Shown here: one piece after another, positions 3,481-19,403 of the stretch
Layout of the letters: the number at the start of each line of letters is the position of its first letter
How positions within the stretch are numbered: position 1 is the stretch's first letter
Assembly: GCA_002726495.1 (NCBI GenBank)
Contig: PBTH01000009.1
Span: 1,302 to 65,301 of the forward strand
DNA: 64,000 bases
Source of the DNA: Methanobacteriota archaeon
GTDB lineage: Archaea; Thermoplasmatota; Poseidoniia; Poseidoniales; Poseidoniaceae
Direction: 5' to 3'
Notes under the pieces: generated by a model
What the model saw: the letters and a program-made list of their open reading frames with translations, nothing else
Databases searched by the model: none
Told to the model about the DNA's origin: nothing
Translations under genes and position numbers: made by a program

Positions 3481-4134
3481 ATGAATCTGTTTTTCCTTTG
3501 TCTGCTAACTCTCTGGCTCTACCTCCCCGGTTTCTTGGCTAACACCTTCGCGATGATGTGGGGGAAATGGCTTCCGAAAACAGGTTATGGACCTTGGCCA
3601 ATTGATGGAGGGAGAGAGTGGAAGGATGGAAATCGTATACTCGGAGATGGAAAGACATGGAACGGACTTATTGGAGGCTCAATGACATCGGGGCTTCTTT
3701 GCATGCTCATGGTCGCCATTGTTGATGATGGTGGAATGGCGACGGTGTTTGATGACGGTTCAACCGTATTTGCGTCGCCGCTAACCGGTTCGGCTGGTGC
3801 ATGGTTTGCGATTGGAGGCATGTACGTTACTGCGTTCATACTCGGTACATTCCTTGGCTTTGCTTGTTTGTTCGGTGACAGTTGCGGTTCCTTTGTAAAG
3901 AGACGACGAGGACTCAAAAGGGAGGGTGATGTTTCGTCCAAAGCACCCTTGCTCGACACGCTTCCTTTCGCCATCATGGTGTTTGTTTTCGGTCAACTCT
4001 TTCTTGGAACCTCTGCTCTCGCAGCACCAGAACTCCGTATCCCAATGCTCGTCTTAATCCTCATCACTCCTTTGTTGCACCGAAGTTTCAATTTGATTGG
4101 ATACAAAATCGGATGGAAAGATGTACCGTATTGA
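3481..4134 (+). CDS. carS: CDP-archaeol synthase (CarS, DUF46 family)
   Basis: Multi-TM protein with PIDGGREWKDGNRILGDGKTWNGLIGG and GDSCGSFVKRRRGLKREG...PLLDTLPF, which match the CarS signature as I recall it. Confidence 0.8.
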   Translation: MNLFFLCLLTLWLYLPGFLANTFAMMWGKWLPKTGYGPWPIDGGREWKDGNRILGDGKTWNGLIGGSMTSGLLCMLMVAIVDDGGMATVFDDGSTVFASPLTGSAGAWFAIGGMYVTAFILGTFLGFACLFGDSCGSFVKRRRGLKREGDVSSKAPLLDTLPFAIMVFVFGQLFLGTSALAAPELRIPMLVLILITPLLHRSFNLIGYKIGWKDVPY

Positions 4135-5833
4135 TGGCCAACGGCGCCTAAGGTACGAAACGAATCTTGATGAACAACAAACCCGACAATGGCTCATGGA
4201 AGAAGAGATGATGACGCCAAGTAAGCATTGGCGGTCATCTCCATTTTGGCGACCAATGCTCTTCTTCACGGGGTTTTTAGTGGCATTCAGTGAGGCGATT
4301 GTACGGCTCATTCAAGGAACAGGAGTGATCGATGCCATTTGGCCCCATGCCGTTCGTTCACTCGATTGGACAGTATGGTTGCGCACCTCTACTGAACAGA
4401 CCTTGACGTTGTTCATACTGATTAGCATCGGAGCCTTTTTCCTCAACAAATGGAAGGTCTCATCTCCCAATCAGAATGCGATTGATGAAGGACTTATGAT
4501 CGCCACCGGCGTTGTTAGTGGATTGATAGCAATACATTTCGTAATGGACATCTTTTACTTGAAGGGAGCATTTCTCATGCTGCCGATGCTCTACGCTTGG
4601 TTGCTCTTGTGGCTGCTGCTTATGGTTGGAGGCATGCCACGACTGCGAACCTCTGCCCTGGAAGGAACCACGCCAGCCAGAGTGATTCATTTGATAGGCG
4701 TATTTGTCGCAGCTTGGATGCTCATGCCAGGCGTCCCTGCCCTCGTGGGATTTGCACCGTCTCCACCCGATGCTCCAGCAATTGGGTATGGCTCAAATCC
4801 AGGTCCTTACGAGACCATAAGATTCTCAGAACCCTATGATATGCCAGTAGATGTTGCAGCAATTCAGGGTGATCGAGAGGATGATGTTGTGTTCTCCGTA
4901 CATGTAACACTTCCACTTCTACCCGATGAATCCCCCATACAAACCATCCCCTTGGGCATCTTATTGCACGGTTTTGGATACCCAGACCTTGATGCATACA
5001 CCTACTGGATTGACCATCTTTCAGCAAAAGGGATGGCTGTAGCATTGGTGCAGTATCCCTCGGATTTACGTCCTGCTGGGTACGAATCCTTTGAGGCGGT
5101 TGATGTTAACGGGACATCGGATTTTCTCCAACATGCATACCGTGACACTGCGATACGCGTTGCGATCAATCACCTTGAAACCATGATCATTGGCGAGAAC
5201 AGGTCTCAAGAAATGGAAGACAATCTTGGCAACAGAACGGTAGATCCAACCTCGCTCTGGGTTGGAGGTCATAGTTTAGGTGGGGCCTACACCTTCATCA
5301 CTTTGGATGAAGTGCTCCCCAAAGGCTGGGGCTCTCATGCTCTTGTTGTCGCGTTGGAATCTCCTGCGAGTCGCCCAATGGGGGACTTCATGGAACCAGA
5401 TTTGAGCAATTTACCCCTGAACACCATGGTTCAAGTTGCTGTTACAGAAGATGACATGAGTGTTGGAAGTTGTCCCGGTGTATTTCATCAGCAGATGTTT
5501 AACGCTCTACCAAGCGAACGAAATCAGTTGATAGAAGTGCATTCCGACCAATATGGATTCCCGCGACTTATTGCGAGCCACTACCTCCAAACCAACCCTG
5601 CTCATGACCGCTTATCGGATTGGGGCTTTTACCGTCGTATCGACGCTCAGGCTGATTTCCTCGTTGCGCACGGGAGAAACGACTCGTTTACCGCTGACTG
5701 GGCCTATCAATACATGATCGAAAAAGAAACCTTAACGCAAATGGGGCAATGGTCGGATGGAACTCCAGTTCTCCCTCTCTCTGTTTACCATGATGCGCTC
5801 AATACCGAAGATCGTTTTTCTGCCTGCACATGA
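4097..5833 (+). CDS. Membrane-anchored alpha/beta hydrolase (lipase, chlorophyllase or PAF-acetylhydrolase-like)
   Basis: The N-terminal ~200 aa hold several hydrophobic helices. Next comes LGILLHGFGYPDLDAYTYWIDHLSAKGMAVALVQYP and the nucleophile elbow VGGHSLGGAY. The start is uncertain, with in-frame ATGs at 4097, 4121 and 4196, and 4097 overlaps the end of carS. Confidence 0.6.
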   Translation: MDTKSDGKMYRIDGQRRLRYETNLDEQQTRQWLMEEEMMTPSKHWRSSPFWRPMLFFTGFLVAFSEAIVRLIQGTGVIDAIWPHAVRSLDWTVWLRTSTEQTLTLFILISIGAFFLNKWKVSSPNQNAIDEGLMIATGVVSGLIAIHFVMDIFYLKGAFLMLPMLYAWLLLWLLLMVGGMPRLRTSALEGTTPARVIHLIGVFVAAWMLMPGVPALVGFAPSPPDAPAIGYGSNPGPYETIRFSEPYDMPVDVAAIQGDREDDVVFSVHVTLPLLPDESPIQTIPLGILLHGFGYPDLDAYTYWIDHLSAKGMAVALVQYPSDLRPAGYESFEAVDVNGTSDFLQHAYRDTAIRVAINHLETMIIGENRSQEMEDNLGNRTVDPTSLWVGGHSLGGAYTFITLDEVLPKGWGSHALVVALESPASRPMGDFMEPDLSNLPLNTMVQVAVTEDDMSVGSCPGVFHQQMFNALPSERNQLIEVHSDQYGFPRLIASHYLQTNPAHDRLSDWGFYRRIDAQADFLVAHGRNDSFTADWAYQYMIEKETLTQMGQWSDGTPVLPLSVYHDALNTEDRFSACT

Positions 5834-5870: not shown

Positions 5871-6296
5871 ATGAGCGGCGAAGCTACAGCGAACGATGTC
5901 CGCTCCCTATGGAAACTCATCGGGGGGTCTGCATTCATGGCCTCAATGTGTTGCTTTCCCAGCGTAGTCCTCGTTTTCTTTGGACTGGCGAGCGTTTCAA
6001 CCGCAGCTGCTCTTTCCGACAACCTCTATTGGGGATACAACGGAATGGGATGGTTTCGACCGCTCCTTCTCATCGCATCGACCATGATGGTCGTTGTTGG
6101 CTTGGTCGTGTATTTCAGAAAAGAAGGAATCTGTTCACTCGATGAAGCAAAACGACAACGACAGAGGGTCATCAACACCAGTTTATTCGTAGGAACCTTC
6201 ACCGTAGCACTCTACATCTTATTCAATTACGTGATTCTTACCGAACTCGGCATTGCACTTGAACTCCCATGGGAGTCAAGCAGACTGTGGAACTGA
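5871..6296 (+). CDS. Small 3-TM membrane protein with a vicinal Cys-Cys motif (MerF/MerT-like?)
   Basis: MCCFPSVVLVFFGLASVS resembles the MerF CCFTPVLV helix-1 motif, but the second Cys pair is absent. Confidence 0.3.
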   Translation: MSGEATANDVRSLWKLIGGSAFMASMCCFPSVVLVFFGLASVSTAAALSDNLYWGYNGMGWFRPLLLIASTMMVVVGLVVYFRKEGICSLDEAKRQRQRVINTSLFVGTFTVALYILFNYVILTELGIALELPWESSRLWN

Positions 6297-6298
6297 GT

Positions 6299-7081
6299 TC
6301 ACACATTTCCCCTGTTTGTCTTACACCCTACGCCCCAATCAGGGTCGCTCTCCATTGCCGAACGAGTCGCTTCCAATAATCGGTCTTCCGCAGTAACCAA
6401 ATGCTCGGATTTCAAGCGGATTGCTAGGCTCAATTGGAAGTCACTTTCTGTCCAACTTACCAATTGAATTTTTGAATTTTCAATTGAAATATTTTGATTA
6501 TTTTGTCCAATTGAAACTTTAATTTTGCGAGGATTAAGATGCATTCCTTTTCGCATGGCTTTTTGCACTGCTTCCTTTGCGGTCCACAAGAACATGGAGG
6601 CGTTTGGTTGCTGACGGAGTTGCTCAAGTTCATCTCCAGTGGACATCATATCAAAGGCATTTGCTGCAAGGGAACGAGAGCTCGGCTCAGCATCGATACC
6701 CACATCCATACTGGAATCGGCAAGAGCAACGAACACATGACCTCCGCTGTGTGAGATTGAAATTGAGGGAAGCGGTAAATTCAGCCACATGCCCTGCAAG
6801 TAGGCGACTCGTGGAGCACGTTCTTGATTACGAAGGATATGGAGGACACTCAAATCTTCAATGCCCCACGATTTGAGGGCGTGCCCCAACAACCATCGTC
6901 CACTCATGTGCTCATCGTTTCGCTTCTGCGTCGCAAAAGTAGCCACTTCATCTGCATTCGCGAGTGGTACTTCACGAAGTTCAAAGGTGTGAACTGGCAT
7001 GCTATAGGCACGAACTCCCAGTGATTCAAAAGTCGGGTGGTTTAATTCCACAATCTGGCGTTCCATGCGCTCACCGATCAT
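6299..7081 (-). CDS. Sfp-type 4'-phosphopantetheinyl transferase (PfaE-like)
   Basis: It carries VGIDAEP and WTAKEAVQKA, matching the PPTase G(I/V)D and (F/W)xxKE(S/A)xxK motifs. Its ATG overlaps the megasynthase stop as ATGA (7078-7081). An alternative ATG lies at 7066. Confidence 0.75.
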   Translation of the reverse strand: MIGERMERQIVELNHPTFESLGVRAYSMPVHTFELREVPLANADEVATFATQKRNDEHMSGRWLLGHALKSWGIEDLSVLHILRNQERAPRVAYLQGMWLNLPLPSISISHSGGHVFVALADSSMDVGIDAEPSSRSLAANAFDMMSTGDELEQLRQQPNASMFLWTAKEAVQKAMRKGMHLNPRKIKVSIGQNNQNISIENSKIQLVSWTESDFQLSLAIRLKSEHLVTAEDRLLEATRSAMESDPDWGVGCKTNRGNV

Positions 7082-10000
7082 CGAACAAATTCAACACTGT
7101 GTTCGTCCGCCACGGGTGCCATCGCCTTCAACCGCAGCCCCTTCATGGCGAGCACTGGAGCATCATCATCGCCGACGATAACAACATCGTGAACGGTGAC
7201 TCCTTCATCATCCGATGAGGTTTGTATGCTACGAAGACGTAGACTCTCATCGCTTTCAGGAACTCGGAGCATTGTTGACCATTGAATCCCAACAGGCAGG
7301 CTACTGAAGCCCTTTGACTCCATAGCCACCAAGCCTGCGTTTTGGAAGCCTGCTTCAATCAGCATCGGCAAGGCTTCGAGCAACACCTGTTCCCCATTGC
7401 TCTCAATAGAAAATTGGTCGGTCTGCGGAAGTTGATGACGCATCAAAGCACGCCCATCAATACCTGGATGTTCATCGTCTCCAACACCTCTTAGCACACC
7501 TCCATGCGATTGGAATCGTGGGCCATGGAAGTAGCGCTGATAGATGAAATCGGGACGTTGAATCAATTCGCCTGATGGGGGTATGCCAATCTCTGGAAGC
7601 AGATTGACCTCGCGATCAAGGAATGGACAAAGGTCGTCGCATTTCTCTACCAAACGAACGAGAGCTGTGTGATGCTCACGCTCACCAAAGACTTCCCCTT
7701 TGGAATTTGCAAGGTCTGAAACAAGCGTGCATCGCACCCAGGTCAAATCACCATCTTTTCGCTCAATCTGAGACACCACACGTACAATCATTGGACCTTT
7801 GAGAAGTTTCACCGGTAGCCCGAAGGTAACCTCTTCATATCCCGCCAAGCATGTTGAGGGGCGCAAAAGGAGTGAATTTTGTGCAAACATTTCCAACGCC
7901 ATGACCCCAGGATGGTAAGGTACTCCGTCGATGGCGTGGTCTGTAAGGAACGGGTGGTCGTCAACTGAAAGGGTGCTTTGCGTGGTCATTGAGGCTCCAT
8001 CCTCAAGGTCGAGGACTTTGTCAATGAATGGGAATCGTGAGGGATCTGCAATTGTTGCAGCCATACTGGGAGGTAATTTCAACGGAGCCTCACGGAATGA
8101 ATCGAAACGATCCATCATACCGAGGGAACCGCATCCAAGTACCCTGCGCTTACCGCCTCGCAATGCCTCATCTACGAAGATATGGACGCCGTCCTCAACA
8201 GAAAGCGTCTCAATTCCTGCTGCCTCAAATACGGCTTCGATTGAACCACGCGTGGCCATGCCAACATCACGCCATCCGGTCCAACCAATGGCAACCGCAC
8301 GGCATGAAGAACTGGCTGTGAGACGAGCCATCTCCGCATCGAGAACTGAATTGGCTGCAGCATAATCCGTCTGACCGCCATTTCCAAACCGTCCCGCTAC
8401 GCTGGTAAAGCAAGAAGCAAACAGTGGATAGTCTCGTCCTGAAGCACGCACTGCACCTAATAGGGCCCTCCATCCATCAATTTTAACACGGACGACGTTG
8501 TCAAATATTTCATGCGATTTATCGCCAACGAGCTTTGAATCTTCAAGACCTGCTCCGTGAACGATACCGGTAATCTCTCTTTCGAGATTCTGGCCAAGGG
8601 ATTCAAGCGCTTCGTAGTCAGTTACATTGACAGAACAATACTCTGCAGTATTGCCGGTCTTGACGATGGTGTCCATCGTGATGAAAACATCCCTGCTACG
8701 AGTGTATTTCTGCCAGGCTTTGTTCCATTCGACCATGGTGACCTTTCCATCATCTGCTGCATCAACCAATCGCTGCCTTAGGGCATTCTTCTCTTCGGCA
8801 AGTTGAGATTCGTCCCATTCGATCCAATGTTCTGTTTCTTCAAGAAGTGCTGAACGACCGAGAAGAACAAAGTGGGCTCCTGCATTTTGGCTTGAAGTTG
8901 CCACTCCGATAACTGAAGCAGCAGTAACTCCGGAGCCGCCACCAGAAACGAGCCAGGTGTCTTCACTGGTAAGCGGCTGTGTTTCTTCAACAAGGTCTTC
9001 TGCAAAGGCTACGAGTGTCCAACGGCGGCCGTCTCGGTCCAAGCCAATTTCTACTTCTCCTCCAAGCGCAAACACATCATGTTCAATCCGTTTTGCGGCG
9101 TCTACCTCCTCAAAGAGAAGTTCTGGATGTAAATCAATGGCTCGGCAGCGCAAGTCTGGGCGTTCAAAGGCATAGGACTTGGTAACGCCTGATGCTGAGC
9201 ATTGGATTGAATTGAAACGTTCACCGATGTTTCCATGCCTCCCATCCATAGCGGTGACGGAGGCGATAATCGCTGGTTTTTCATTTGAAATATGATCATT
9301 CAATTCTTTCAAGAGAGCAAACCACCCATGACCGGCCAGAGCAATCTGTGATGATGGGACGGTGTCTTCCTCCCACTGTGCAGAAGCGATTTTCATCGGA
9401 GCCATGTGGACAAGAGCGCCAATCGTCGTGGCCCGTAGTTGTTCACTGATCCAAGCCACATGCTCAGGTTGTTCTGGGTCAGCCCGATAGACGGTTCGAC
9501 CGCCTTCGTTAAGGACAGATGGTTCTCGGATACTGCTCTCAAAACCAACACGAACAGCATGCAAGCCTCGCGCATCCATGCGCTTGCAAAATGCCTCTGC
9601 GATCCCCCACCCATCGTCGGTAACAACAACGGCCCCATTAATGGTAAGTGGCTCATCAGTTCCTTGACAATCTTCGACTTCAACTTGCCACCTACGAGTT
9701 CCCGAAGGAGTGAACGTATCGGTGGCCGATTCTACTGTGGATTCAACTGGAAGGGGTTCGGATGACGCAGGTGCCGCTGTGGCGCCTCCGGTCATTTTCA
9801 CGATATAGGCGGTGAAATGGTTGAGCGTTGGGTGGTCGGAAAGGACAAAGTCCTCATCCACTGGAAGTGAAAATTTCTCACGTATGTCCCCCATGATTTC
9901 GGCTTGCTTGACGGTATCAATTCCAAGTTCACCTTCCAAATCCTGGTCCATCTCGATGAAATCCGCTGGATAACCCGTATGTTCAACCACGACCTCAATG

Positions 10001-13000
10001 AGGACCGATTCAATATCTGGATTTGAGCCAGAAGATGGAGGCAATTCCACTGGAGGTGTCACGGCAGCTGGTGCTGGAGTTGGGGCACTTTCCTTGGGTG
10101 CTGAAGAGGGTACTGAAGGTGGGGCGCCACCCTGCATGGTTTGGATGTACCCCATCATGTGATTGAGTGTTGGATAATCAGACAAAACAAAATCTTCATC
10201 GATGGGCAGATCAAAACGCTCTCGGATATCAGCCATAATTTCAGCTTGCTTGACCGTGTCAATTCCAAGTTCACCTTCCAAATCTTGGTCCATTTCAATG
10301 AAATCTGCTGGGTACTTTGTGTGTTCAACTACGACTTCAACAACAATGTTTTGCATTGAAACATCATCAACAACCACTGGCGATGGAGCATCTTTTTGTT
10401 CGGTCTTTGAAACAGTCACTGGAGCCTCAAGTTGAGGTGTGGCCGGAGGTTGAGGTGCGGGTGGTGAACGTTCTGAACCGGTCATCTGTTGAATGTAGGA
10501 AATCATATGATTCAGAGTCGGATAATCCGAGAGGATGAAATCCTCGTCGACGGGAAGTGAGAATTTCTCACGGATATCAGCCATAATTTCAGCTTGTTTT
10601 ACCGTATCAATGCCCAATTCACCTTCCAAGTCCTGGTCAAGTTCAATGAAATCCGCTGGATAACCTGTATGAGTCACGACAACATCAATGACCGTTTGAA
10701 CCGTAGACTCGTCGCTTACTGCGAGAGGTGCTGACGGCATAACCGGTGCAGGTGATGGCTTAGGAGCAGCAACAGCAGGAGGAGTTTCAATGCGGGGCGG
10801 GGCGGTTTCTGGTTGGACCGATGCTTTGCCTTCCCACTCTTTTGTCGGCTCCCAATGTTCGCCTTGAACCCCGCCGTGAAGGTTGTCATCTCCATCGACA
10901 TAAGCCACGAGTTTATTTTGGAGGATTCGCATCACAACATCATCCGTTCCTGCGAGTTTTCTTGCCCAAGCAAGCAAGATTGCTCCATTGATTCGTTCAC
11001 CTTCAATGGGCCAACGACGAACCAAAGAGAGCGCAATTTGGGAGCCAAAACCAGCCGCAAATCTCAATCCATACTGAAGTCCCGGATAATCTCCACCAGT
11101 TGATAGATTCAAATCGCCCAATTCCGGGTCGTTTTCTTTGTGATTAGCAATTGGGGGAATACGCCCCGTCAGCATGCCGTAGAACATACTTGCATCTTCA
11201 ATCCCAACCGCCATTGGATGCCCAGTGAATCCTTTGGTATTCGCAATAACGAGGCTGTTGGTCGATTCTCCGAAAGTATCTCGAAGGGCTTTGACCTCAG
11301 ATTGTGCTGAACCCCCACGTGCAGGAGTGTATGTTTCATGTGAAAAGAATGCAGTTTTTGGAGCGAACTCATGCCGGTCAAGACCCCAACGTTGTTCCAT
11401 AGAACTGATGAAATCGTTCACGATTTCGCCAACGTGTTCAACATCAAGTCTCGTCCCGTGATATGCTGAATTTGCCGTGGTCGAACCAAGCAATTCGGCA
11501 ATGGGTTGTACGCCTCGTTGTTTTGCTTCGGAATGGCGCTCAACAACGAATGCAGCAGCCCCCATTCCCAGGATGAGGCCGTTTCTTCTGCGATCAAATG
11601 GTAGGGCTGTTTCCTCTACGATATTGTTGGTCGCAGCAGCCCCAGAGGCTGCAAACCCGCCAGCAATCCACTCCCAAAGGTCGTCACCCGTCACATCATC
11701 TCCACTGATGATGACAACACGGTCTACTCGGTCATTTTCCAACCAGTCTTCAGCAACTCCAAAGGCCGCTGTAGCGGATGCGCAAGCAAGGTTAATCGTC
11801 GTATTCGGGCCCCTGATGCCGGTGTATTGAGCGAATTGTGAATGGCCCATGTTGAGGGCTTGGAACAAGTAACGCCGGTCAAACCGACCCTCGCCATCGT
11901 CCCCGTTAGTTTTGGCATGCTTTGAGGCCATCTGCAATCCAGGGAAACAGGATGAAAACACAATACCCGTGCGTTCCCGTTGAATTTGAGGAACTTGCCA
12001 ATTCCGGATGAGTCGGAGTCCACCTTTGCCAACCTGTTCAACAGGAGTGAGTGGAATTCCAGCGTCACGGAGTGCAAGTAAACCTGCAGCGACAGACAAT
12101 TGTGTACTGATGTCCCAGGCGAGCACGACCTTGGGGTCAATACCAAATTCTTCTGAAAGGTCAAATGCACCTTTGAGGCCTGCGAGTTGGGGGATGTCTC
12201 CAAAGACCGTTGCTTGGTCCATGTTGACCGAACCGTCTCTTCCTTTGATGAGGCGGACAATGTTCTTGTCGAGAAGTCGTTGCTTGTATTCATCTGAAAC
12301 TTCTGAAATACACGTTTCTCCGCGCACTAATTTTTCAAAGGTATCCTCTGAAAAGACACGGTCCATACCAGGAAGTCCAAGGGAAATACCGGTGACGACA
12401 AAGGGGTCCGTATCTCTTGATGAACCCGAATGTGATTTGACTGCAGGCGCCGTTTGAACACGGTGCGATGCCTCTGATCTTTGAGGTGATGTCACGGTCG
12501 AGCGAGGTGCCCATGAAGATGGGGGCATCTTGACCCATCGTGCTAAATCGCCTGCGGTCAAGGATTGGCTGGGGTCATATTCGCCGTCAGTTTCAGCTTC
12601 ACTCGCCAGTGTTGAAATGACGTTTTGTATGGAAGATTCATTCAATCCAAGCCCTTCACGAAGCATAACATGCCCGTGGCAAAATGAAGCAGGGTAGTTG
12701 CTAAACGCTCCAATCCGGTCACCAACATAAGCCCGAATCGCCCGTTGTAGTGCGAATTCGTTGTCGACTACCGGGTGGTGAACTGGGGAAGAAGAAGGTA
12801 CGACAACAGCCCCTGCTCCACTCGGAAGTGGGCGTGCCCGAACGCGGAGCGATTCAACTTCTGAGGTTGACGGCCCTGTAGCCATTTGCACAGGGTGATG
12901 TGCCTCGATTGGGCCCGCTCTGAAGGCTTCACTTAGAATGTTTGAATTCGTATCTGGCCATTGAGGCGCTCGTCCTGCGAGGGCAAGGGCTCCAAGAGCG

Positions 13001-15870
13001 GTAAGGAATGTTGCAATACCTCCCTGTTTTGGATGGTTGGACATGATGGATAGGTGAGGGCGGTCTTCCAAAATTTGCATTGAAAACATGGTCAGGGCTC
13101 GTTTGGGGCCAACTTCAACGAAGACTCTGGCGCCAGCATCGTACATGGTTTCAATTTGTTTGGTCCATTCAACTGAAGAGGCCATTTGAGGAGCCAGTTG
13201 TTTCAAGACCTCCTGTTTAGAATCTCCACCCTTCATTGGATAAAATCTTCCATCAACGTTGGCTGTAATCGGAATACTGGGCCAACGAATCTCAAGGGAC
13301 TCAAGGAAACGTCGCAACGGTTCATTCGCAGGTGCGACAATACGGGAGTGGAATGCGTGAGAAGTAGCGAGTTCAACGCTGTTGAATCCTTTGGATTCAA
13401 AAGCGGCCATTGCTGAGCGAACCGGTGCAGTTTCACCGGCAATGACGGTCATTTTTGGTGAGTTTTTATTGGCTGCAATCACGTATCCTTCTGTTGCATC
13501 TAAGATCGCTTCCACTTCATCATATGGAGCACTTACACTTGCCATCAATCCTTTATCGTCGATTTCAACCGAGCCCATTTCCGTACCGCGAGCTGCTGCT
13601 GCACGCAACGCTCCATCCATGTCAAGTATACCCGATGACATCAATGCAGCATATTCACCAAGTGAGTGGCCTGCAACCATGTCAGGATGGTGGCCAAAGG
13701 CGTTCAAGGTCCGCTCAATAGCTAAATCGGCAGTGAGCATTGCTGGTTGTGTGTATTCTGTTTGTTTGAGTTTGTGCTCGGCTTCTTTGAGTTCATCCGA
13801 AGACAGCGAATCCCTCAATACAAAACCGGAAAGCGTCTCGCCATCAAGGACATCGACCATGGTGACATCTGCTTGCTTCCAAACAGATGCTGCGGGCGAG
13901 AATCGCTTGACAAGGTCGTTGGTCATTCCAACGTATTGGCTTCCTTGACCAGGATACATATGGGCTACTTTGGCCTCTTTTGGCAAGGCGGAGTCGGTAC
14001 TGATGAGAATGCCTTGCGATTGAAGAAAGCCCCATTTTTCAGGGTCGTCCATTGCCTTGAGTGCAAGCGTGACTCGCTTGTCAAATTCTGCCCAAGATGT
14101 TGCGACGAGAGCCATTCTTGCCTGATGGGATGAATCGTATTCCCCACTTGCTCCTTGGAGGGCCTCAGAAAGTCTCCTCCCTCGTGGGTCGGAATCAAAT
14201 CTTGGCTCTCCGAATTTCAACGCACCGAGCGAAGAAGACAACTCCTTCACCGATGAAGCGGATAAGAGCAGAAGGCCTCCTTCAATCGATTTGAGTTGCT
14301 CGTGAGTCATTGTTGGCTGTGCTGATGAATCAAATATTGAGGGGGCTTCTGCGGTTGAGGCCGAAGATTGTGCGTATGCGTTCCAGCGGCCTTCCCAATC
14401 CAAAGCAAGTGGGCGATGAACATCAGGCTCATATCCTTCCAAAGCAATGTGGAAATTCGTTCCTCCAAAGCCAAAAGCAGAGACACCGGCTCGCCGAGGG
14501 TTATCGCTTGGCCGAGGCCATTCTCGGGCTTCTGTGGGCACAAAAAATGGAATATTTGACCAATCAACAGTTGGATTTGGCGTCTCAAAATTGGCGCTCG
14601 GAGGAATGGTGCGGTGATGGAGAGCCATGACCGTTTTCATGATTCCAGCAATACCTGCAGCCGCCTTGAGGTGACCAATTTGAGATTTGATGGAGCCAAC
14701 GGCAACCTTGCCTGTACCCTCTATGCCAGTCCACAATCGAGACAGTGTTGAGAGTTCAGTCGCATCACCGACCTTGGTAGATGTTCCGTGAGCCTCAACC
14801 AATTCAACTGAAGAGGCTGGATATCCGGCTTGGCTGTACGCTCGGGCAATCGCCTGAATTTGCCCCCTTTGACTTGGAGCAGTAATTCCTTTTCCACGTC
14901 CATCGGACGAACCGCCAATACCCCGAATAACACTGTATATTTCATCTCCAGAATGGATGGCATCGTTCAATCGCTTGAGAACAAGCACACCGGCCCCCTC
15001 ACCCATTACAAATCCGTTTGCACGGGCATCAAACGGCGAAGAGTGCGATGGGGAAAGCGCTCCAATCGCTGAGAATTTCGCGAAGGTTGCAGGATCCATT
15101 GTCCGATCTGTAGCTCCCGCCAACATTACGTCAACTTGACGAGTTTGAAGAAGTCGGCACGCATCTAAAACAGCGGCCATGGAAGATGCACATGCAGCAT
15201 CCATTGCATGATTCGGCCCCTGCAAGTCCAAGAGATTGGCCACTCTTCCTGAAACGACGTTCGCAAGTTCACCCGGCATCGTATCCTCATCAACACGTGG
15301 CGTGCCCTCGTTGATCTCGTTCACAAAGGCATCAGCATTTGTCGACGGCATGCCGTGAGTCATGGCGGTTTGTTTGGTGTGTTCGGACCAAACACGAATG
15401 TTTGACAGATTCCTATTTTCTCCACCAAGGGCATTGGCAAAGACAACACCCGTTTTGGTGCGGTCGATATCATTGCTTTCACCATCGTATCCGGCATGTT
15501 CTATTGCATCGGCTGAAACGGTAACCGCCCACAACTGGCACGGGTCAATTTGTGGAAGTGTGCCGGGAGGTTGCCGCCAACGACGCCAATCAAACTCATC
15601 ACCCTTCACGAGAGCGCCAATTTTTGCATAAGTGAATCCCTCCGTATGCTCTCCAGGGCCGCCTTCTTTCCAAAAATGGCTCATTGGCCCAGGCCATCTG
15701 CCCTCAGGCAAAGGAGCAATGCTGACTTTCTTATCGATGATGTTCTGCCAAAAGTCTTCGATGCTTGGGGCATCTGGCATAAGAGCGCCAATCCCTACGA
15801 CCGCAATCGGTTCAAAGGGCCCTTGTTCAAGACCTTCGCAAGGTTTGCCGTCATCGGTAGTAATGGTCAT
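7078..15870 (-). CDS. Pfa/PKS-like type I megasynthase with domain order KS-AT-KS-ACPx3-KR-DH
   Basis: One uninterrupted ORF. The domain motifs are listed in the sub-features below. The ORF track starts at GTG 15879. I prefer ATG 15870, which sits 5 nt after a GGTGA Shine-Dalgarno-like element. Confidence 0.9.
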   Translation of the reverse strand: MTITTDDGKPCEGLEQGPFEPIAVVGIGALMPDAPSIEDFWQNIIDKKVSIAPLPEGRWPGPMSHFWKEGGPGEHTEGFTYAKIGALVKGDEFDWRRWRQPPGTLPQIDPCQLWAVTVSADAIEHAGYDGESNDIDRTKTGVVFANALGGENRNLSNIRVWSEHTKQTAMTHGMPSTNADAFVNEINEGTPRVDEDTMPGELANVVSGRVANLLDLQGPNHAMDAACASSMAAVLDACRLLQTRQVDVMLAGATDRTMDPATFAKFSAIGALSPSHSSPFDARANGFVMGEGAGVLVLKRLNDAIHSGDEIYSVIRGIGGSSDGRGKGITAPSQRGQIQAIARAYSQAGYPASSVELVEAHGTSTKVGDATELSTLSRLWTGIEGTGKVAVGSIKSQIGHLKAAAGIAGIMKTVMALHHRTIPPSANFETPNPTVDWSNIPFFVPTEAREWPRPSDNPRRAGVSAFGFGGTNFHIALEGYEPDVHRPLALDWEGRWNAYAQSSASTAEAPSIFDSSAQPTMTHEQLKSIEGGLLLLSASSVKELSSSLGALKFGEPRFDSDPRGRRLSEALQGASGEYDSSHQARMALVATSWAEFDKRVTLALKAMDDPEKWGFLQSQGILISTDSALPKEAKVAHMYPGQGSQYVGMTNDLVKRFSPAASVWKQADVTMVDVLDGETLSGFVLRDSLSSDELKEAEHKLKQTEYTQPAMLTADLAIERTLNAFGHHPDMVAGHSLGEYAALMSSGILDMDGALRAAAARGTEMGSVEIDDKGLMASVSAPYDEVEAILDATEGYVIAANKNSPKMTVIAGETAPVRSAMAAFESKGFNSVELATSHAFHSRIVAPANEPLRRFLESLEIRWPSIPITANVDGRFYPMKGGDSKQEVLKQLAPQMASSVEWTKQIETMYDAGARVFVEVGPKRALTMFSMQILEDRPHLSIMSNHPKQGGIATFLTALGALALAGRAPQWPDTNSNILSEAFRAGPIEAHHPVQMATGPSTSEVESLRVRARPLPSGAGAVVVPSSSPVHHPVVDNEFALQRAIRAYVGDRIGAFSNYPASFCHGHVMLREGLGLNESSIQNVISTLASEAETDGEYDPSQSLTAGDLARWVKMPPSSWAPRSTVTSPQRSEASHRVQTAPAVKSHSGSSRDTDPFVVTGISLGLPGMDRVFSEDTFEKLVRGETCISEVSDEYKQRLLDKNIVRLIKGRDGSVNMDQATVFGDIPQLAGLKGAFDLSEEFGIDPKVVLAWDISTQLSVAAGLLALRDAGIPLTPVEQVGKGGLRLIRNWQVPQIQRERTGIVFSSCFPGLQMASKHAKTNGDDGEGRFDRRYLFQALNMGHSQFAQYTGIRGPNTTINLACASATAAFGVAEDWLENDRVDRVVIISGDDVTGDDLWEWIAGGFAASGAAATNNIVEETALPFDRRRNGLILGMGAAAFVVERHSEAKQRGVQPIAELLGSTTANSAYHGTRLDVEHVGEIVNDFISSMEQRWGLDRHEFAPKTAFFSHETYTPARGGSAQSEVKALRDTFGESTNSLVIANTKGFTGHPMAVGIEDASMFYGMLTGRIPPIANHKENDPELGDLNLSTGGDYPGLQYGLRFAAGFGSQIALSLVRRWPIEGERINGAILLAWARKLAGTDDVVMRILQNKLVAYVDGDDNLHGGVQGEHWEPTKEWEGKASVQPETAPPRIETPPAVAAPKPSPAPVMPSAPLAVSDESTVQTVIDVVVTHTGYPADFIELDQDLEGELGIDTVKQAEIMADIREKFSLPVDEDFILSDYPTLNHMISYIQQMTGSERSPPAPQPPATPQLEAPVTVSKTEQKDAPSPVVVDDVSMQNIVVEVVVEHTKYPADFIEMDQDLEGELGIDTVKQAEIMADIRERFDLPIDEDFVLSDYPTLNHMMGYIQTMQGGAPPSVPSSAPKESAPTPAPAAVTPPVELPPSSGSNPDIESVLIEVVVEHTGYPADFIEMDQDLEGELGIDTVKQAEIMGDIREKFSLPVDEDFVLSDHPTLNHFTAYIVKMTGGATAAPASSEPLPVESTVESATDTFTPSGTRRWQVEVEDCQGTDEPLTINGAVVVTDDGWGIAEAFCKRMDARGLHAVRVGFESSIREPSVLNEGGRTVYRADPEQPEHVAWISEQLRATTIGALVHMAPMKIASAQWEEDTVPSSQIALAGHGWFALLKELNDHISNEKPAIIASVTAMDGRHGNIGERFNSIQCSASGVTKSYAFERPDLRCRAIDLHPELLFEEVDAAKRIEHDVFALGGEVEIGLDRDGRRWTLVAFAEDLVEETQPLTSEDTWLVSGGGSGVTAASVIGVATSSQNAGAHFVLLGRSALLEETEHWIEWDESQLAEEKNALRQRLVDAADDGKVTMVEWNKAWQKYTRSRDVFITMDTIVKTGNTAEYCSVNVTDYEALESLGQNLEREITGIVHGAGLEDSKLVGDKSHEIFDNVVRVKIDGWRALLGAVRASGRDYPLFASCFTSVAGRFGNGGQTDYAAANSVLDAEMARLTASSSCRAVAIGWTGWRDVGMATRGSIEAVFEAAGIETLSVEDGVHIFVDEALRGGKRRVLGCGSLGMMDRFDSFREAPLKLPPSMAATIADPSRFPFIDKVLDLEDGASMTTQSTLSVDDHPFLTDHAIDGVPYHPGVMALEMFAQNSLLLRPSTCLAGYEEVTFGLPVKLLKGPMIVRVVSQIERKDGDLTWVRCTLVSDLANSKGEVFGEREHHTALVRLVEKCDDLCPFLDREVNLLPEIGIPPSGELIQRPDFIYQRYFHGPRFQSHGGVLRGVGDDEHPGIDGRALMRHQLPQTDQFSIESNGEQVLLEALPMLIEAGFQNAGLVAMESKGFSSLPVGIQWSTMLRVPESDESLRLRSIQTSSDDEGVTVHDVVIVGDDDAPVLAMKGLRLKAMAPVADEHSVEFVR
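7081..8052 (-). other. PKS-type (PS-DH, double hot-dog) dehydratase domain
   Basis: HPFLTDHAIDGVPYHPG fits the HxxxGxxxxP motif (His codon 7936-7938). The second half contains YFHGPRFQ. Confidence 0.65.
8245..9672 (-). other. Ketoreductase domain (structural plus catalytic subdomains)
   Basis: It has the Rossmann motif TWLVSGGGSGVTA and the SDR catalytic region GNGGQTDYAAAN. Confidence 0.7.
9790..10716 (-). repeat. Three tandem Pfa-type carrier (ACP) domains at 10480-10716, 10132-10368 and 9790-10026, separated by Pro/Ala-rich linkers
   Basis: The block YPADFIE(L/M)DQDLEGELGIDTVKQAEIM.DIRE.F.LP.DEDF.LSD.PTLNH occurs three times, with periods of 348 and 342 nt. The expected Ser position is Thr in every copy (codons ACG at 10603-10605, ACG at 10255-10257, ACC at 9913-9915). 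Confidence 0.75.
11005..12405 (-). other. Ketosynthase domain 2 (internal, Cys-His-His retained, divergent HETYT motif)
   Basis: It carries VVTGISLGLPG, INLACASATAA (Cys codon 11782-11784), FFSHETYTPARGG and GFTGHPMAVG. Confidence 0.7.
13075..13962 (-). other. Acyltransferase domain (malonyl-type)
   Basis: It carries GQGSQYVGM, GHSLGEYAAL and SHAFHS. The HAFH motif is associated with malonyl-CoA specificity. Confidence 0.8.
14440..15810 (-). other. Ketosynthase domain 1 (Cys-His-His intact)
   Basis: It carries IAVVGIGALMPDA, MDAACASS (Cys codon 15190-15192), EAHGTSTKVGD and GHLKAAAG. Confidence 0.85.
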
Positions 15871-15875
15871 TTTAT

Positions 15876-15880
15876 TCACC
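15876..15880 (-). promoter_or_regulatory. Shine-Dalgarno-like GGTGA upstream of the megasynthase ATG
   Basis: The minus strand reads AAGGTGAATAAAATG. The element abuts the fabI stop codon (TAA, 15881-15883), which implies translational coupling. Confidence 0.4.
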
Positions 15881-16672
15881 TTAATTCATGATGCTTTCTG
15901 GCACCATCGTAATTGAGTAACCCGCATCAACATAGATGCATTGGCCAGTCACTCCAGAAGATAGAGGGCTTGAGAGCCATAGTGTAGCACCTGCAACGTC
16001 TTGTTGGCTTACATTGCGGCGCAATGGGGCATTTGCTTCAACGTGGTCAAGAATACGGTCAAATCCGGGAATTCCCCCCGCTGCAATGGTACGAATTGGC
16101 CCTGACGAAATAGCGTTGATCCGATGACCTTCCGGCCCCAAATGGCACGCCAACTCCCTCGTCCAGCATTCAAGCGCAGCTTTCGCCATGGACATAATTC
16201 CATAATTGGGAACGTATCGATTTGCTGCTGCATAGGTCAGTGTCACCGTAGACGAACCTGGATTCAAATAAGGAAGTGCATGCTTAAGGCAGCGTTGAAG
16301 GGAATTGGCGGAAATGGTCATGGCCGTGTTGATATCTTCACCTTCAACGAATAGAATTGGACGGTCAAAACAGGCTCTTGGTGCAAATCCGATAGCATGG
16401 ATAAGGATATCTGCCTTTTTGCCCGGATGGTCTTTTGCGAATGCATCAAAAAATTCCTGAGTCGTTGCATCTTCTGCAACATCCAGTGGATAGAATCCTC
16501 CAATGGATGGAAGTTGGTCTTTTAATTGAAAGATACGACTCATAAATCGCTTCTGGTACCCCAAATAAAGTGTCACTCCAGCAGCGGCAAGTTGTTGACA
16601 AATAGCCCAAGCGATGGAGTCTTCGCTAGCAACACCAAAGACAAACGCTGTTTTCCCTTCTAAACTTAGCAT
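15881..16672 (-). CDS. fabI: Enoyl-[acyl-carrier-protein] reductase, FabI type (SDR)
   Basis: It carries LEGKTAFVFGVASEDSIAWAI and the Y-x6-K motif YGIMSMAKAALE. The start is placed at the internal ATG 16672, because the family N-terminus is M..L.GK. The ORF track extends to 16735. Confidence 0.8.
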   Translation of the reverse strand: MLSLEGKTAFVFGVASEDSIAWAICQQLAAAGVTLYLGYQKRFMSRIFQLKDQLPSIGGFYPLDVAEDATTQEFFDAFAKDHPGKKADILIHAIGFAPRACFDRPILFVEGEDINTAMTISANSLQRCLKHALPYLNPGSSTVTLTYAAANRYVPNYGIMSMAKAALECWTRELACHLGPEGHRINAISSGPIRTIAAGGIPGFDRILDHVEANAPLRRNVSQQDVAGATLWLSSPLSSGVTGQCIYVDAGYSITMVPESIMN

Positions 16673-16792
16673 GAAAACACTCCGTGACGAACAGGTGTAG
16701 TGCGCTACACCAAGCCTTTGAGTGTTGCCTTTCAAAAAGGGGCTTAGAGCGACGGTTTTGCACCTTCTTGATTTAGCGGAGGAAGCGTAAAC

Positions 16793-17896
16793 TCACAAGT
16801 CCGCAAAGGCGTCATCCAAATCCTCGTCATCATCAAGGAAATCTTCGAATTCGTCATCCAAATCTTCGAAATCAAATTCATCTGTGCCGGGAGCATCTTC
16901 TTCCTCATCAAGGTCAACCGGAGGCACATACATGGGTTGAGAATTAGCACGGCGTCGCAAGGCTTTGCTCATTGCAATAATGAGAATAATAGCAAACAAG
17001 GCCCCCCCTGCAATACCGCCATACAACACCGCATCGTCCTTGCTGAACTCTTCCAAACCGCCACCGAGACCTCCGGAGCCTGTGGTGGCTTCAAGTTGAA
17101 TGCTCAGTGTTATTTCACTGACAGGTGCACTGTCATCGTTGGCGCTTGAAGCTTGAAATATGATTTGATGACGAGCGTCTTCTGCAACTTCGGCAGGAGA
17201 ACGCACGGTTAATTCCAATGTGGAGGAGGTCCCGTCTTTAACCACATTCTCGGCGATGAAGACTCCTGCCGGAAACGAGAAGCCTACTTCTTCAAGTTCA
17301 GCACTGTTGGAGATTGTAACACTGATCTTGTCATCATTGTTGCCGTTATTCTGGAATTGGAACGAAATTGGGATTTCTTCGCTTGAAGCCATGGCTCTGG
17401 TGCTTTTATCTGAAATGCTAAGTTCGACCATTCCAAATGTTGCGATCTCCAAGTTGCCGCTTACACTTGCATTCGTGGCAAGTTGTTCCGGCCATTGAAG
17501 AGACTGTACATTGGTGACTGTGGCGACAAGAGTGAAATCGTAAGTCAAATCAGATGAGAGACGGTTTTGCCCGTTAAACGTCACCGTAAAGTCTTCCTCG
17601 CCTCCGGCTTCTAGCGTAAAGGAATCTTCTCCAAGCATCATATCAACTTCGGCGCCGCTCCACTCTTTCTCAACGCTAATTTGTTCTTCAAACGTTGAAG
17701 GGTTGGTTACCGTGCAGGTGATTTCCACGGTTGGGTCTTCAAGTGGATGGACGTTCATTTCTGGATTCTTTTCGTCGCAATCAATTTCAACTCCAGGAGC
17801 AGTCGGTTGCTGCGAAGATGCAGTTAATGGAGCGCAAAGAGCCAAGAGAAAGACACTAAGAATTGCCATCCTACGAGCCAATAACACTGCGCACAC
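16793..17896 (-). CDS. Secreted, TM-anchored surface protein with an acidic cytoplasmic tail (function unknown)
   Basis: It has an N-terminal signal-like segment (MAILSVFLLALCAPLTASS) and a C-terminal helix (GGIAGGALFAIILIIAM). The tail is DLDEEEDAPGTDEFDFEDLDDEFEDFLDDDEDLDDAFADL. Confidence 0.6.
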   Translation of the reverse strand: MCAVLLARRMAILSVFLLALCAPLTASSQQPTAPGVEIDCDEKNPEMNVHPLEDPTVEITCTVTNPSTFEEQISVEKEWSGAEVDMMLGEDSFTLEAGGEEDFTVTFNGQNRLSSDLTYDFTLVATVTNVQSLQWPEQLATNASVSGNLEIATFGMVELSISDKSTRAMASSEEIPISFQFQNNGNNDDKISVTISNSAELEEVGFSFPAGVFIAENVVKDGTSSTLELTVRSPAEVAEDARHQIIFQASSANDDSAPVSEITLSIQLEATTGSGGLGGGLEEFSKDDAVLYGGIAGGALFAIILIIAMSKALRRRANSQPMYVPPVDLDEEEDAPGTDEFDFEDLDDEFEDFLDDDEDLDDAFADL

Positions 17897-17983
17897 CGGC
17901 CATGGGTAGGCTCACCCTTTCATCAATGTGATGGCGACACGAGCCAGTAGATTCTTGATTTTGGCCCTTCCTTTGCGAGCCAA

Positions 17984-18850
17984 TTATTCACCATAGACTC
18001 GTTGTGCAAGGTCTTGATGTGTGTTCCAAAGTACATCCTCAGGGAGGCCTGCATCAATGAGTTGTTGGGTCCTTCTTGGGACAGTTTTAGGCCCGAGTAC
18101 CGCGCCTGGCCGTCTTAAATCGTCCATGTAATCGGTCTCAAGAAAGAAACCATGGCTTGACTGTTTGAACGTTGACATCACCTTCTCAATTGCGCCCTTT
18201 CCAATGAGAACACTCGGAGTTAAACCATGGGTTGATTGAAGAGAAACATCCGGTGGCGCATAATGACGTACCAACTTTACGAGGTCCATACCTTGCTTTA
18301 TTGCACGCTGAGCTAAATCAGGATAAGTTTCCTCACTCTCACCCTCGACGTGCAATTGGAGTGGTAGGCCTTCCTGTGCTGCGAGGTGCATCGTCTCGTC
18401 CAGAAGTAAATTAGACAACTCCAAAACGCGTTCACTAACAGGCCAATGCGGCCTACCAACCTCACCGATGGCGTGGGCTTTACCTTCATTGATGAACTCA
18501 AGTGCTGCATCGATTGAATGCCTGTAATTGGTTGTGGCTCGCTCTTCTCCTGATTCCTCGTCCTCGCTCACCCATCGTTCAAACTGATGTGCAAAAGCTG
18601 CTGGATGAGGGCCAAGAACAACACGAACACCCAATCCGATCTCTTTGCGAACCTGTTCAGCCATCTCAACCGTCCCACTGTAAGCCGTACGATGGCCATC
18701 AAGTGTTTCAGGAGGTTTTGAGAAATCGGGACAGTGGACTAACACCACATCAGTCCCGCCAACACGTTGGAAATCACGAGCAGCATCAAGAAAACGTCCG
18801 TTCTTGTTGAGATGGAAATGATTGTCCAAAATCGGACCGTCATATGTCAT
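17984..18850 (-). CDS. TatD-related metal-dependent TIM-barrel hydrolase (archaeal COG1099-like)
   Basis: It has the N-terminal motif ILDNHFHL, an internal AIGEVGRPHW, then LQLHVEG and FLETDY. Confidence 0.55.
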   Translation of the reverse strand: MTYDGPILDNHFHLNKNGRFLDAARDFQRVGGTDVVLVHCPDFSKPPETLDGHRTAYSGTVEMAEQVRKEIGLGVRVVLGPHPAAFAHQFERWVSEDEESGEERATTNYRHSIDAALEFINEGKAHAIGEVGRPHWPVSERVLELSNLLLDETMHLAAQEGLPLQLHVEGESEETYPDLAQRAIKQGMDLVKLVRHYAPPDVSLQSTHGLTPSVLIGKGAIEKVMSTFKQSSHGFFLETDYMDDLRRPGAVLGPKTVPRRTQQLIDAGLPEDVLWNTHQDLAQRVYGE

Positions 18851-18859
18851 AGCGTCACC

Positions 18860-19402
18860 TCAAATTTGATCAACGAAATAGCCATGCTCAGTGAACAGGT
18901 TTTTCCAATAAACTGCAGCCATAGCAACCATGTTTGGATGGCGTGCATCCGTCACAATACACTTCCCATTAGGCCAAATTTGAACGGTTAGACTATGGCG
19001 AGTATCAGAAAGAATGGTGCATCCGAGTCTTTGGTCATACTCAGTAGTGCCCGATGGGAACGAACCTGCAATGGCCTGCAGGTTGATGGATTGTTCATAT
19101 TTGAATGAGGTTACGACTGGGCCGAGTTCAGCAACGAGGCCTGCATCGTCCATTCCCAAGCGAAGAAGCAATTCTTTCGCAGCGGCTCGGGCCGCCTCAA
19201 CGCGATGGGTCCCGTGAACGACGATTCTTCCTTCTTCGTCAATTACAAGCGTGGCACGAGGGCGGTCCAAGACTTTGATGACCACTCCACTGTTACGTTG
19301 ACCACCAACGATATCCACCACTTTTTGTTGGTCGAGAGGAACTGGACAAACAAAACGGACGAGTTGATTTTCAACACGAACATCTACTGAACCGGTGGCC
19401 AT
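18860..19402 (-). CDS. Divergent TBP-fold (two-repeat) protein
   Basis: Both halves align by eye to archaeal TBP. VRVENQLVRFVCPVPLDQQKVV...PRATLVIDEEGRIVVHGTHRVEAARAAAKELLLRLG aligns with the first repeat. VVTSFKYEQSINLQAIAG...SLTVQIWPNGKCIVTDARHPNMVAMAAVYWKNLFTEHG aligns with the second. Confidence 0.5.
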   Translation of the reverse strand: MATGSVDVRVENQLVRFVCPVPLDQQKVVDIVGGQRNSGVVIKVLDRPRATLVIDEEGRIVVHGTHRVEAARAAAKELLLRLGMDDAGLVAELGPVVTSFKYEQSINLQAIAGSFPSGTTEYDQRLGCTILSDTRHSLTVQIWPNGKCIVTDARHPNMVAMAAVYWKNLFTEHGYFVDQI

Positions 19403-19403
19403 G

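Follow-up and report, generated by a model that had tools for sequence, protein, structure and literature searches.

We analysed a stretch of 64,000 nucleotides of contig PBTH01000009.1 (assembly GCA_002726495.1; hereafter the window) from an archaeon of the family Poseidoniaceae, focusing on a megasynthase gene whose product carries two ketosynthase (KS) domains and, in particular, on the second of these (KS2). The gene is a single open frame of 8.8 kb on the minus strand (window positions 7078-15879) that encodes 2933 amino acids (aa); its orthologues across Poseidoniales are 2900-3060 aa long. A first-pass annotation of the sequence had proposed the order KS, acyltransferase (AT), KS, three acyl carrier protein domains (ACP3), ketoreductase (KR) and dehydratase (DH) in one polypeptide, and this order was borne out by a Pfam scan of the protein together with a separate scan of KS2. 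The gene and the KS2 features are located as follows.

7078-15879, minus strand: whole megasynthase gene, 2933 aa, KS1-AT-(probable relic ACP)-KS2-ACP3-KR-DH (open reading frame list, translation, Pfam and NCBIfam scans)
11005-12405, minus strand: KS2, the second ketosynthase (aa 1159-1625), FabF-like, with the signature H-E-T-[YF]-T-P-x-R-G-G-S (PF00109, TIGR03150, FabF structures, AlphaFold2/Foldseek, tree)
11782-11784, minus strand: KS2 active-site Cys1366, codon TGC (aligned to the FabF catalytic Cys)
11335-11340, minus strand: KS2 His1514-Glu1515 (CAT GAA), the first catalytic His and the family Glu that stands for the Gly of HGTGT (FabF alignment)
11218-11235, minus strand: KS2 Lys1549...His1554 (NTKGFTGH), the catalytic Lys and second His (aligned to the equivalents of FabF Lys335/His340)

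The KS2 region (aa 1094-1660) was scanned by itself against Pfam and NCBIfam. PF00109 matched aa 1159-1452 (5.2e-16; 59.4 bits vs. a cut-off of 20.8 bits), the top NCBIfam family was TIGR03150 (fabF; 2.3e-38, 132 bits), and the best PDB sequence matches were the FabF entries 2gqd and 4ddo (phmmer, E 3.5e-24). The FabF hidden Markov model (HMM) and the structural match both span the C-terminal half of KS2. These HMM and PDB results confirm the complete second KS that the first-pass annotation had placed after KS1 and AT, and the scan that it had proposed for aa 1159-1625 returned both PF00109 and a FabF-type match. In the phmmer alignment, the KS2 Cys (in INLACASAT), His (SHETYT), Lys (NTKG) and His (TGH) fall on the catalytic Cys/His/Lys/His of FabF. 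The codons were read on the minus strand (His1514, CAT at 11338-11340; Lys1549, AAA at 11233-11235; His1554, CAT at 11218-11220), so that the Cys/His/His triad claimed earlier stands, with Lys1549 present in addition. KS2 is 467 aa long vs. ~411 aa for FabF, and the extra ~55 residues form at least three family-specific insertions that hold invariant Arg/Lys/Trp residues. With regard to the divergence of KS2, the HETYT motif described previously was recovered, whereas the single long N-terminal insert was not, the extra length being spread over these insertions; the linker between AT and KS2, earlier put at ~220 aa, measured about 175-190 aa.

Conservation was evaluated in an alignment of 136 full-length KS2 sequences, made up of 135 representatives (38-57% identity to that of the window) and the window's own. 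Cys occupies the position of Cys1366 in 135/136 sequences, as does the gating Phe at its position (135/136), while both catalytic His residues, the Lys and the Gly that precedes the second His are found in all 136. The Glu after the first His is likewise invariant (136/136); the motif H-E-T-[YF]-T is practically invariant across the set and can serve as the family signature, and the P-A-G-D stretch of FabF is replaced by P-x-R-G-G-S. Six comparisons between orthologues within Poseidoniaceae each gave KS2 the lowest nonsynonymous divergence (dN) among the ten segments of the gene (0.032-0.143 for KS2); for the nearest species the values were 0.032 for KS2, 0.053 for KS1 and 0.068 for AT. Only dN ranks are given here, because synonymous sites had reached saturation even in the comparison with the closest species (96% amino acid identity in KS2) and dN/dS could not be computed. 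Together, the dN values and the pattern of invariance point to a working active site rather than a scaffold.

An AlphaFold2 model of KS2, built from 31 homologues of the fetched loci, reached a mean predicted local distance difference test (pLDDT) score of 85.5 and a predicted template modelling (pTM) score of 0.90. When the model was compared with the PDB using Foldseek, at least the top 40 matches were all FabF/KASII structures (TM 0.88, E ~5e-29), which superposed on KS2 over its full length; the actinorhodin KS ranked 45th. The phylogenetic position of KS2 was examined with a quick tree and then with a maximum-likelihood tree, carefully built on 60 rows. The references were E. coli FabF and FabB, the PfaA-KS, PfaC-KS and PfaC chain-length factor (CLF) domains of two gammaproteobacterial pfa clusters (found via TIGR02813), and a few extra KS domains of type I and type II synthases, including polyketide synthases (PKSs); PfaC supplied the only CLF references. 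The KS2 sequences formed one clade (100/100), and a branch with 100/99 support separated KS2, FabF, FabB and another KAS-like protein from KS1, PfaA-KS, PfaC-KS, PfaC-CLF and the PKS KS domains. KS1 grouped with the KS domains of PfaA and PfaC. The stem of the KS2 clade is very long, 3.5-5 changes/site from all reference KS domains.

CLFs lack the active-site Cys, which is replaced by Gln or another residue and leaves them unable to form an acyl-enzyme, and they lie immediately beside the KS with which they heterodimerise; KS/CLF pairs are used by polyunsaturated fatty acid (PUFA) synthases and type II PKSs. It could be argued that KS2 is a partner of this kind, or a decarboxylase, which would not condense but would set chain length with KS1 or prime the synthase by decarboxylating malonyl-carrier. 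The existence of such pairs favors this possibility, as does the fact that the KS2 His loop (HETYT...RGGS) is unlike that of every characterised condensing KS compared. It is also how the domain was named when this layout was described: 'Type R' synthases were defined as one pfaA homologue of the order KS-MAT-CLF-ACP(3-6)-KR followed by a phosphopantetheinyl transferase (PPTase) gene, with the second KS-like domain labelled 'CLF' (Shulse & Allen 2011, PLoS One 6:e20146, PMC3098273). KS2, however, keeps the Cys in all sequences except one, together with both His residues and the Lys, and the best tree that joined KS2 with PfaC-CLF was rejected by the approximately unbiased (AU) test (delta lnL 36.9, p = 0.0034). 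Moreover, KS1 and KS2 are set apart by the whole AT plus linker, unlike adjacent KS-CLF didomains. A sub-family with three KS-like domains (KS-KS'-AT-KS2; P0222, P0227, P0246, P0251, P0254, P0256, P0257, P0266 and P0271) was also observed. In these relatives both catalytic His residues are missing (Phe/Tyr in their place) from the copy right after KS1, which is CLF-like, whereas KS2 of the same proteins is intact. We consider a CLF-like or decarboxylase role quite improbable on these grounds. The first-pass annotation had held that KS2 is not a Cys-less CLF and had named an alignment with the CLF or decarboxylase clades, with the Cys misassigned, as the result that would speak against this. 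In the phylogeny it had suggested (with FabF/FabB, PfaA-KS, PfaC-KS/CLF and PKS KS domains), KS2 fell on the FabF/FabB side, and the Cys lies on the FabF Cys. Given the thin reference sampling and long stems, the safe statement is that KS2 appears not to be a PfaC-type CLF and to be nearest to the FabF-type KAS enzymes.

We read KS2 as a catalytically competent condensing domain of FabF ancestry (type II KAS) within a 'Type R' PfaA-like iterative fatty-acid/polyketide synthase, and we put the probability of this reading at roughly 0.6. It leads from the observed domain, with its catalytic residues, strong conservation, fold and phylogenetic position, to an activity of KS2, a division of labour between KS1 and KS2 and a product that we infer. 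Several points weigh against it. PF02801 stayed below its cut-off on KS2 (15.2 vs. 20.8 bits), the TIGR03150 score lies below the equivalog cut-off (132 vs. 493.75 bits), and the curated PfaA model also scores below its cut-off for KS2. KS2 has an altered second shell around its active site, in which Glu takes the place of the Gly beside the first His, three residues (RGG) are inserted and Asp311 of FabF is replaced by Ser, and two active-site loops of the AlphaFold2 model, one of them the YTPARG loop, are of low confidence. Because the second shell is remodelled and AlphaFold2 is unsure of that loop, canonical chemistry in KS2 is an assumption. As for the rest of the system, the Pfam scan of the megasynthase found no release domain; carrier loading is assumed and unproven, the acceptor position being Thr and not Ser; which steps fall to KS1 and which to KS2 cannot be read from sequence; and the literature searched held no biochemically characterised member of the KS2 family.

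Some of these points would fit other roles for the domain. The sub-threshold PF02801 match and the uncertain loops might be expected if KS2 were retained only as a catalytically silent scaffold in a dimeric megasynthase. This seems highly improbable to us, as no other domain of the protein evolves as slowly as KS2 and its His, Lys and His are invariant, with the Cys kept in 135/136 sequences, across bacteria and archaea at only 38-50% identity; scaffolds would not keep catalytic residues in this way. It is also possible, if unlikely, that the Cys-His-His of KS2 performs non-canonical chemistry, such as chain transfer or release, or a terminal non-decarboxylative condensation, and that the HETYT/RGGS motif and the insertions reflect this role. 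The invariant Glu after the first His, the Ser at the Asp311 position, the three or more conserved insertions with their invariant Arg/Lys/Trp residues, the very long stem, the lack of a release or thioesterase domain in the megasynthase and the wax-ester synthase gene that adjoins a homologue in Sulfotelmatobacter (see below) are all consistent with such a role. On the other hand, every residue needed for ordinary decarboxylative condensation is present, including the gating Phe, the fold superposes on FabF along its full length, and release could be provided in Poseidoniaceae by a membrane-anchored alpha/beta hydrolase encoded near the operon. A broader and equally doubtful proposal would take the KS2 clade as a third lineage of condensing enzymes that co-evolved with Thr-type carriers and either recognises them specifically or carries out chemistry beyond ordinary elongation; in Poseidoniales the KS1/KS2 megasynthase, with the only KS and carrier domains of the genome, would then drive de novo synthesis of fatty acids by a carrier-dependent pathway. 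The invariant motif H-E-T-[YF]-T-P-x-R-G-G-S, the basic and Trp-bearing insertions and the long stem from FabF/B and type I KS domains would be the marks of such a lineage, an attribution that we likewise regard as speculative.

The remaining parts of the protein are located as follows.

14380-15822, minus strand: KS1, PfaA-type ketosynthase (aa 20-500; PF00109, PF02801 and KAsynt_C_assoc)
12970-13959, minus strand: acyltransferase (aa 641-970), the sole AT of the system, GHSLGE with Ser739 (PF00698, 2.1e-36; TIGR00128 fabD, 4.5e-56)
12406-12924, minus strand: AT-KS2 linker (aa 986-1158), a probable relic carrier domain (positional alignment to the ACPs of relatives)
9760-10716, minus strand: three tandem carrier domains (aa 1722-2040; PF00550, three stretches)
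10603-10605, 10255-10257 and 9913-9915, minus strand: codons of the carrier acceptor Thr residues (read directly)
8266-8688, minus strand: ketoreductase core (aa 2398-2538; PF08659, 1.5e-20)
7108-8031, minus strand: PKS-type dehydratase (aa 2617-2924; PF21089, 4.5e-7, 30.2 bits, above the cut-off)

Pfam placed KS1 at aa 23-432 (to 496 with its C-terminal extension), AT at 641-970, three PP-binding stretches, KR at 2398-2538 and DH at 2617-2924, in addition to the second ketoacyl-synt stretch; a further DH model, PF14765, scored below its cut-off (4.6e-4; 20.2 vs. 23.7 bits). Across 183 aa, KS1 is only 27% identical to KS2. The catalytic set of KS1 (Cys230, His364, Lys398 and His403) was read directly, and all single-KS1 relatives retain it in full; both KS domains would thus appear to be maintained as enzymes.

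Acyl carriers normally have a phosphopantetheinylated Ser at the acceptor site. All three carriers of the megasynthase have Thr at this position (LGIDTVKQAEIM; Thr1759, Thr1875 and Thr1989), as do 328/358 carriers in the family, with Ser in 15 carriers from six KS2-bearing representatives. Since most carriers have Thr, while a few lineages have Ser in all of theirs, as do the two canonical PfaA controls, the two residues seem to be interchangeable at the acceptor site. In the linker between AT and KS2, the ACP HMM gave no significant match (E 8.5). True ACPs, one or two, lie between AT and KS2 in six relatives (E 1e-10 to 1e-26), and when these are aligned by position the linker has GLGLNESS where the ACPs have DLGIDTVKQ. 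The corresponding stretch (window positions about 12535-12762, minus strand; aa about 1040-1115) carries Glu at the acceptor position. From this positional alignment alone, the linker is a probable decayed carrier domain.

Under the preferred reading of KS2 as a competent FabF-type condensing domain, the single AT would load malonyl units on the three tandem carriers, and KS1 (PfaA-type) and KS2 would both perform decarboxylative Claisen condensations. PUFA synthases have two active KS domains, and by analogy with these KS1 and KS2 probably split the work by chain length or stage. The probable relic carrier in the AT-KS2 linker, together with the true ACP that some relatives retain there, suggests descent from a two-module design in which KS1-AT-ACP was followed by an AT-less KS2-ACPn-KR-DH, with KS1 now presumably using the downstream carriers. 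KS1 would most likely prime the synthase and build the early chain, and KS2 would carry the bulk of iterative elongation. The first-pass suggestion that one polypeptide may unite KS functions for initiation and for elongation is plausible. With KR and DH acting in cis and an enoyl reductase (ER) in trans, the expected product is a largely saturated long acyl chain.

The two genes that directly flank the megasynthase gene are consistent with this scheme.

15881-16735, minus strand: FabI-type enoyl reductase gene, directly upstream, the putative trans-ER partner (PF13561, 1.1e-68)
6299-7081, minus strand: Sfp-type PPTase gene, directly downstream (PF01648, 1.1e-10)

The start of the PPTase gene overlaps the stop of the synthase gene. 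FabI adjoins the synthase in all Poseidoniales loci with enough flank, and the PPTase gene lies downstream in nearly all of those whose flank extends there. Upstream of fabI (window 16793-20237, minus strand) are genes for a membrane protein, a TatD-family hydrolase, a TBP-fold protein and a 277-aa protein for which no Pfam match was found. All Poseidoniales loci whose flank is long enough, from either family, show the order orf277-TBP-TatD-(membrane protein)-FabI-synthase-PPTase. Flanking genes include CDP-archaeol synthase besides the TBP-fold protein, and the close homologues of the megasynthase are all from Poseidonia or Poseidoniales, which identifies the host as a member of Marine Group II. 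On the opposite strand, two genes converge on the PPTase gene: one for a 578-aa membrane-anchored protein with a weak alpha/beta-hydrolase match (window 4097-5833, plus strand) and one for a small protein of 141 aa (window 5871-6296, plus strand). Both are kept at the same position in many Poseidoniaceae loci, and the hydrolase is a candidate chain-release enzyme.

The reductase partner varies between lineages. Besides Poseidoniales, one other archaeal family has FabI, and Acidobacteria and a further archaeal family have an acyl-CoA dehydrogenase (ACAD) together with ETF. At one Thermoplasmatota locus (family f19; L128:1199-17569), genes for ACAD and ETF alpha/beta precede the synthase in place of FabI. 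The locus of Sulfotelmatobacter (Korobacteraceae; L058:50-21508) has the order wax-ester synthase, Fe-S/CCG protein, ETF-beta, ETF-alpha, ACAD, synthase, ACC and PPTase, with the ACC a single-chain multidomain protein of 1863 aa. The position of ACAD and ETF at these two loci suggests an ETF-linked enoyl-reducing partner. Because either FabI or ACAD plus ETF adjoins the synthase, depending on lineage, an enoyl-reducing partner would usually be encoded nearby.

The archaeon's own genome (1.73 Mb, 81% complete) was also searched. Its only convincing KS domains are KS1 and KS2, and its only carrier domains are the three of the megasynthase. It has three carboxyltransferase genes, which could be a source of malonyl-CoA, and three PlsC-type acyltransferases outside the window (G000:C66:34669-35049, C63:9483-9914 and C45:25448-25831), which could be a route of the synthase product into glycerolipids. 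The PlsC-type acyltransferase family had no match in four archaeal control genomes.

To determine the distribution of the KS2 megasynthase, we searched 1.84 billion representatives exhaustively and without a profile; 532 clusters (50% identity) matched at E < 1e-30. When the window's own domains were used as probes, the usual order in 149 representatives was KS1-AT-KS2-ACPn-KR-DH. A scan of species-representative genomes with two KS2 signature peptides gave matches in at least 600 species genomes, 599 of which were confirmed. The hosts among the matches listed included Poseidoniaceae, Thalassarchaeaceae, Acidobacteriota (among them Korobacteraceae and Bryobacteraceae), Acidimicrobiia, Solirubrobacterales, Myxococcales and Steroidobacteraceae. 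Entries of shorter length in the databases extend the range to Gemmatimonadota, Anaerolineae, Chloroflexales, Vicinamibacteria and numerous Actinomycetota. The first-pass annotation had recommended a search for this domain order with its taxonomy, and the order proved to be common in both bacteria and archaea. Its suggestion that the layout might mark out secondary-lipid synthases of a class of their own fails, because the order is this widespread and was already classified as Type R in 2011. Free-standing KS2-like enzymes were searched for as well, and those recovered were mainly partial megasynthase fragments with no clear stand-alone lineage.

Within the archaea, KS2 was found in 127/201 sampled genomes of Poseidoniales. 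It is near-universal in Poseidoniaceae (95/99), vs. 29/99 in the other large Poseidoniales family, where its presence is all-or-none by genus and six small-genome genera have none (0/67). Among Thermoplasmatota, 106/301 sampled genomes carry it, and several families outside Poseidoniales are nearly saturated (9/9, 22/24, 6/6 and 10/10), with a same-class family at 0/8. In a tree of named KS2 sequences, those of Poseidoniales formed one clade (SH-aLRT 89), beside a group that holds a deltaproteobacterium and representatives in which an ACP still follows AT and precedes KS2; sequences from the other Thermoplasmatota formed separate groups next to the main bacterial clade. Since Poseidoniales and the other Thermoplasmatota fall apart in this tree, the gene appears to have at least two archaeal lineages, and transfer between domains of life is likely.

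These results bear on how such synthases are described. The published 'CLF' label is misleading for a domain whose condensing active site is complete, which is conserved more strongly than any other part of the protein and which appears to be of FabF-type descent, and Type R synthases would be better modelled and engineered as two-KS systems. The family is very large, by both species genomes and sequence clusters, and has been neglected biochemically. Marine Group II archaea are reported in the literature to lack glycerol-1-phosphate (G1P) dehydrogenase, and discussions of the lipid divide invoke a pathway, described as putative, for the biosynthesis of fatty acids in them (PMC6962369). Because it holds the only KS and carrier machinery in the genome, the Marine Group II synthase is a concrete candidate for this pathway. 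If KS2 did represent a third condensing-enzyme lineage, the product would feed PlsC-type acyltransferases in an abundant marine archaeon, which would blur the lipid divide. Literature on PKS or fatty-acid synthases in Poseidoniales, Marine Group II or Thermoplasmatota was limited to biosynthetic gene cluster counts and a one-line mention of the putative pathway; a retracted paper (PMC10434046) lists T1PKS/HglE-KS clusters in Poseidoniaceae.

Among the known systems compared are the type II PKS KS-alpha/KS-beta pairs. Actinorhodin KS-alpha (1TQY) shares the thiolase-fold KS with KS2 and gave a weaker but significant match (58 bits), whereas KS2 keeps its Cys and has no adjacent Cys-less partner; this comparison draws on PDB rankings only. 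FabF/KAS II is the best match of KS2 by sequence, HMM and structure, with the same catalytic Cys/His/Lys/His, the same gating Phe and the same side of the tree. The identity is only ~22-23%, however, with HGTST-PAGD in FabF vs. HETYT-PARGGS in KS2, and FabF is free-standing while KS2 is embedded in a type I polypeptide with ~55 extra residues. The Swf family of sponge symbionts was considered as well and rejected on its order, KS-AT-DH-ER-KR-ACP.

In bacterial PUFA synthases, PfaA has the order KS-MAT-ACPn-KR-DH and PfaC the order KS-CLF-DH2. The KS1, AT, tandem carriers, KR and PKS-type DH of the megasynthase resemble those of PfaA, and the two KS domains predicted to be active here have a parallel in PUFA synthases, where two KS domains are active. 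TIGR02813 matches aa 24-949 of the megasynthase at 1.6e-261, over profile positions 8-893 of 2582 (KS1-AT only), and the score of 871 bits falls short of the cut-off of 1010.1 bits, while true PfaA controls reach 2626 and 1435 bits. In contrast to PfaA/PfaC, the archaeal system is without PfaC, CLF, a FabA-type DH and PfaD, its second KS forms part of the single chain and is related neither to PfaC-KS nor to PfaC-CLF, and its carriers have Thr where those of the two canonical PfaA controls have Ser.

The closest counterpart is Type R. In our search of the literature for KS-AT-KS or KS-MAT-CLF layouts, only Shulse & Allen 2011 was found to describe one, with Koribacter, Solibacter, Elusimicrobium and Roseiflexus as hosts, an uncharacterised product and, in Koribacter, a gene for ACC that separates the synthase from the PPTase (PMC3098273). 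The window shares with Type R the single pfaA-like gene with a second KS-like domain, the 3-6 carriers (here ACP3) and KR in the same order, and the PPTase downstream. In a comparison made at the level of families, Korobacteraceae, Bryobacteraceae and Chloroflexales were found to have homologues of KS2 with 47-49% identity, and the Sulfotelmatobacter locus repeats the ACC of Koribacter between synthase and PPTase. The differences are that the host here is a Poseidoniales archaeon, that the partner is FabI vs. ACAD/ETF at the acidobacterial locus, that the 'CLF' of the paper keeps a FabF-like Cys-His-Lys-His here, and that the C-terminal DH of the megasynthase is unlisted in the paper. Because of its architecture, the family-level taxonomy and the Sulfotelmatobacter context, the megasynthase is best assigned, as judged from sequence comparison, to the Type R secondary-lipid synthases, as an archaeal copy with a layout that does not constitute a new class.

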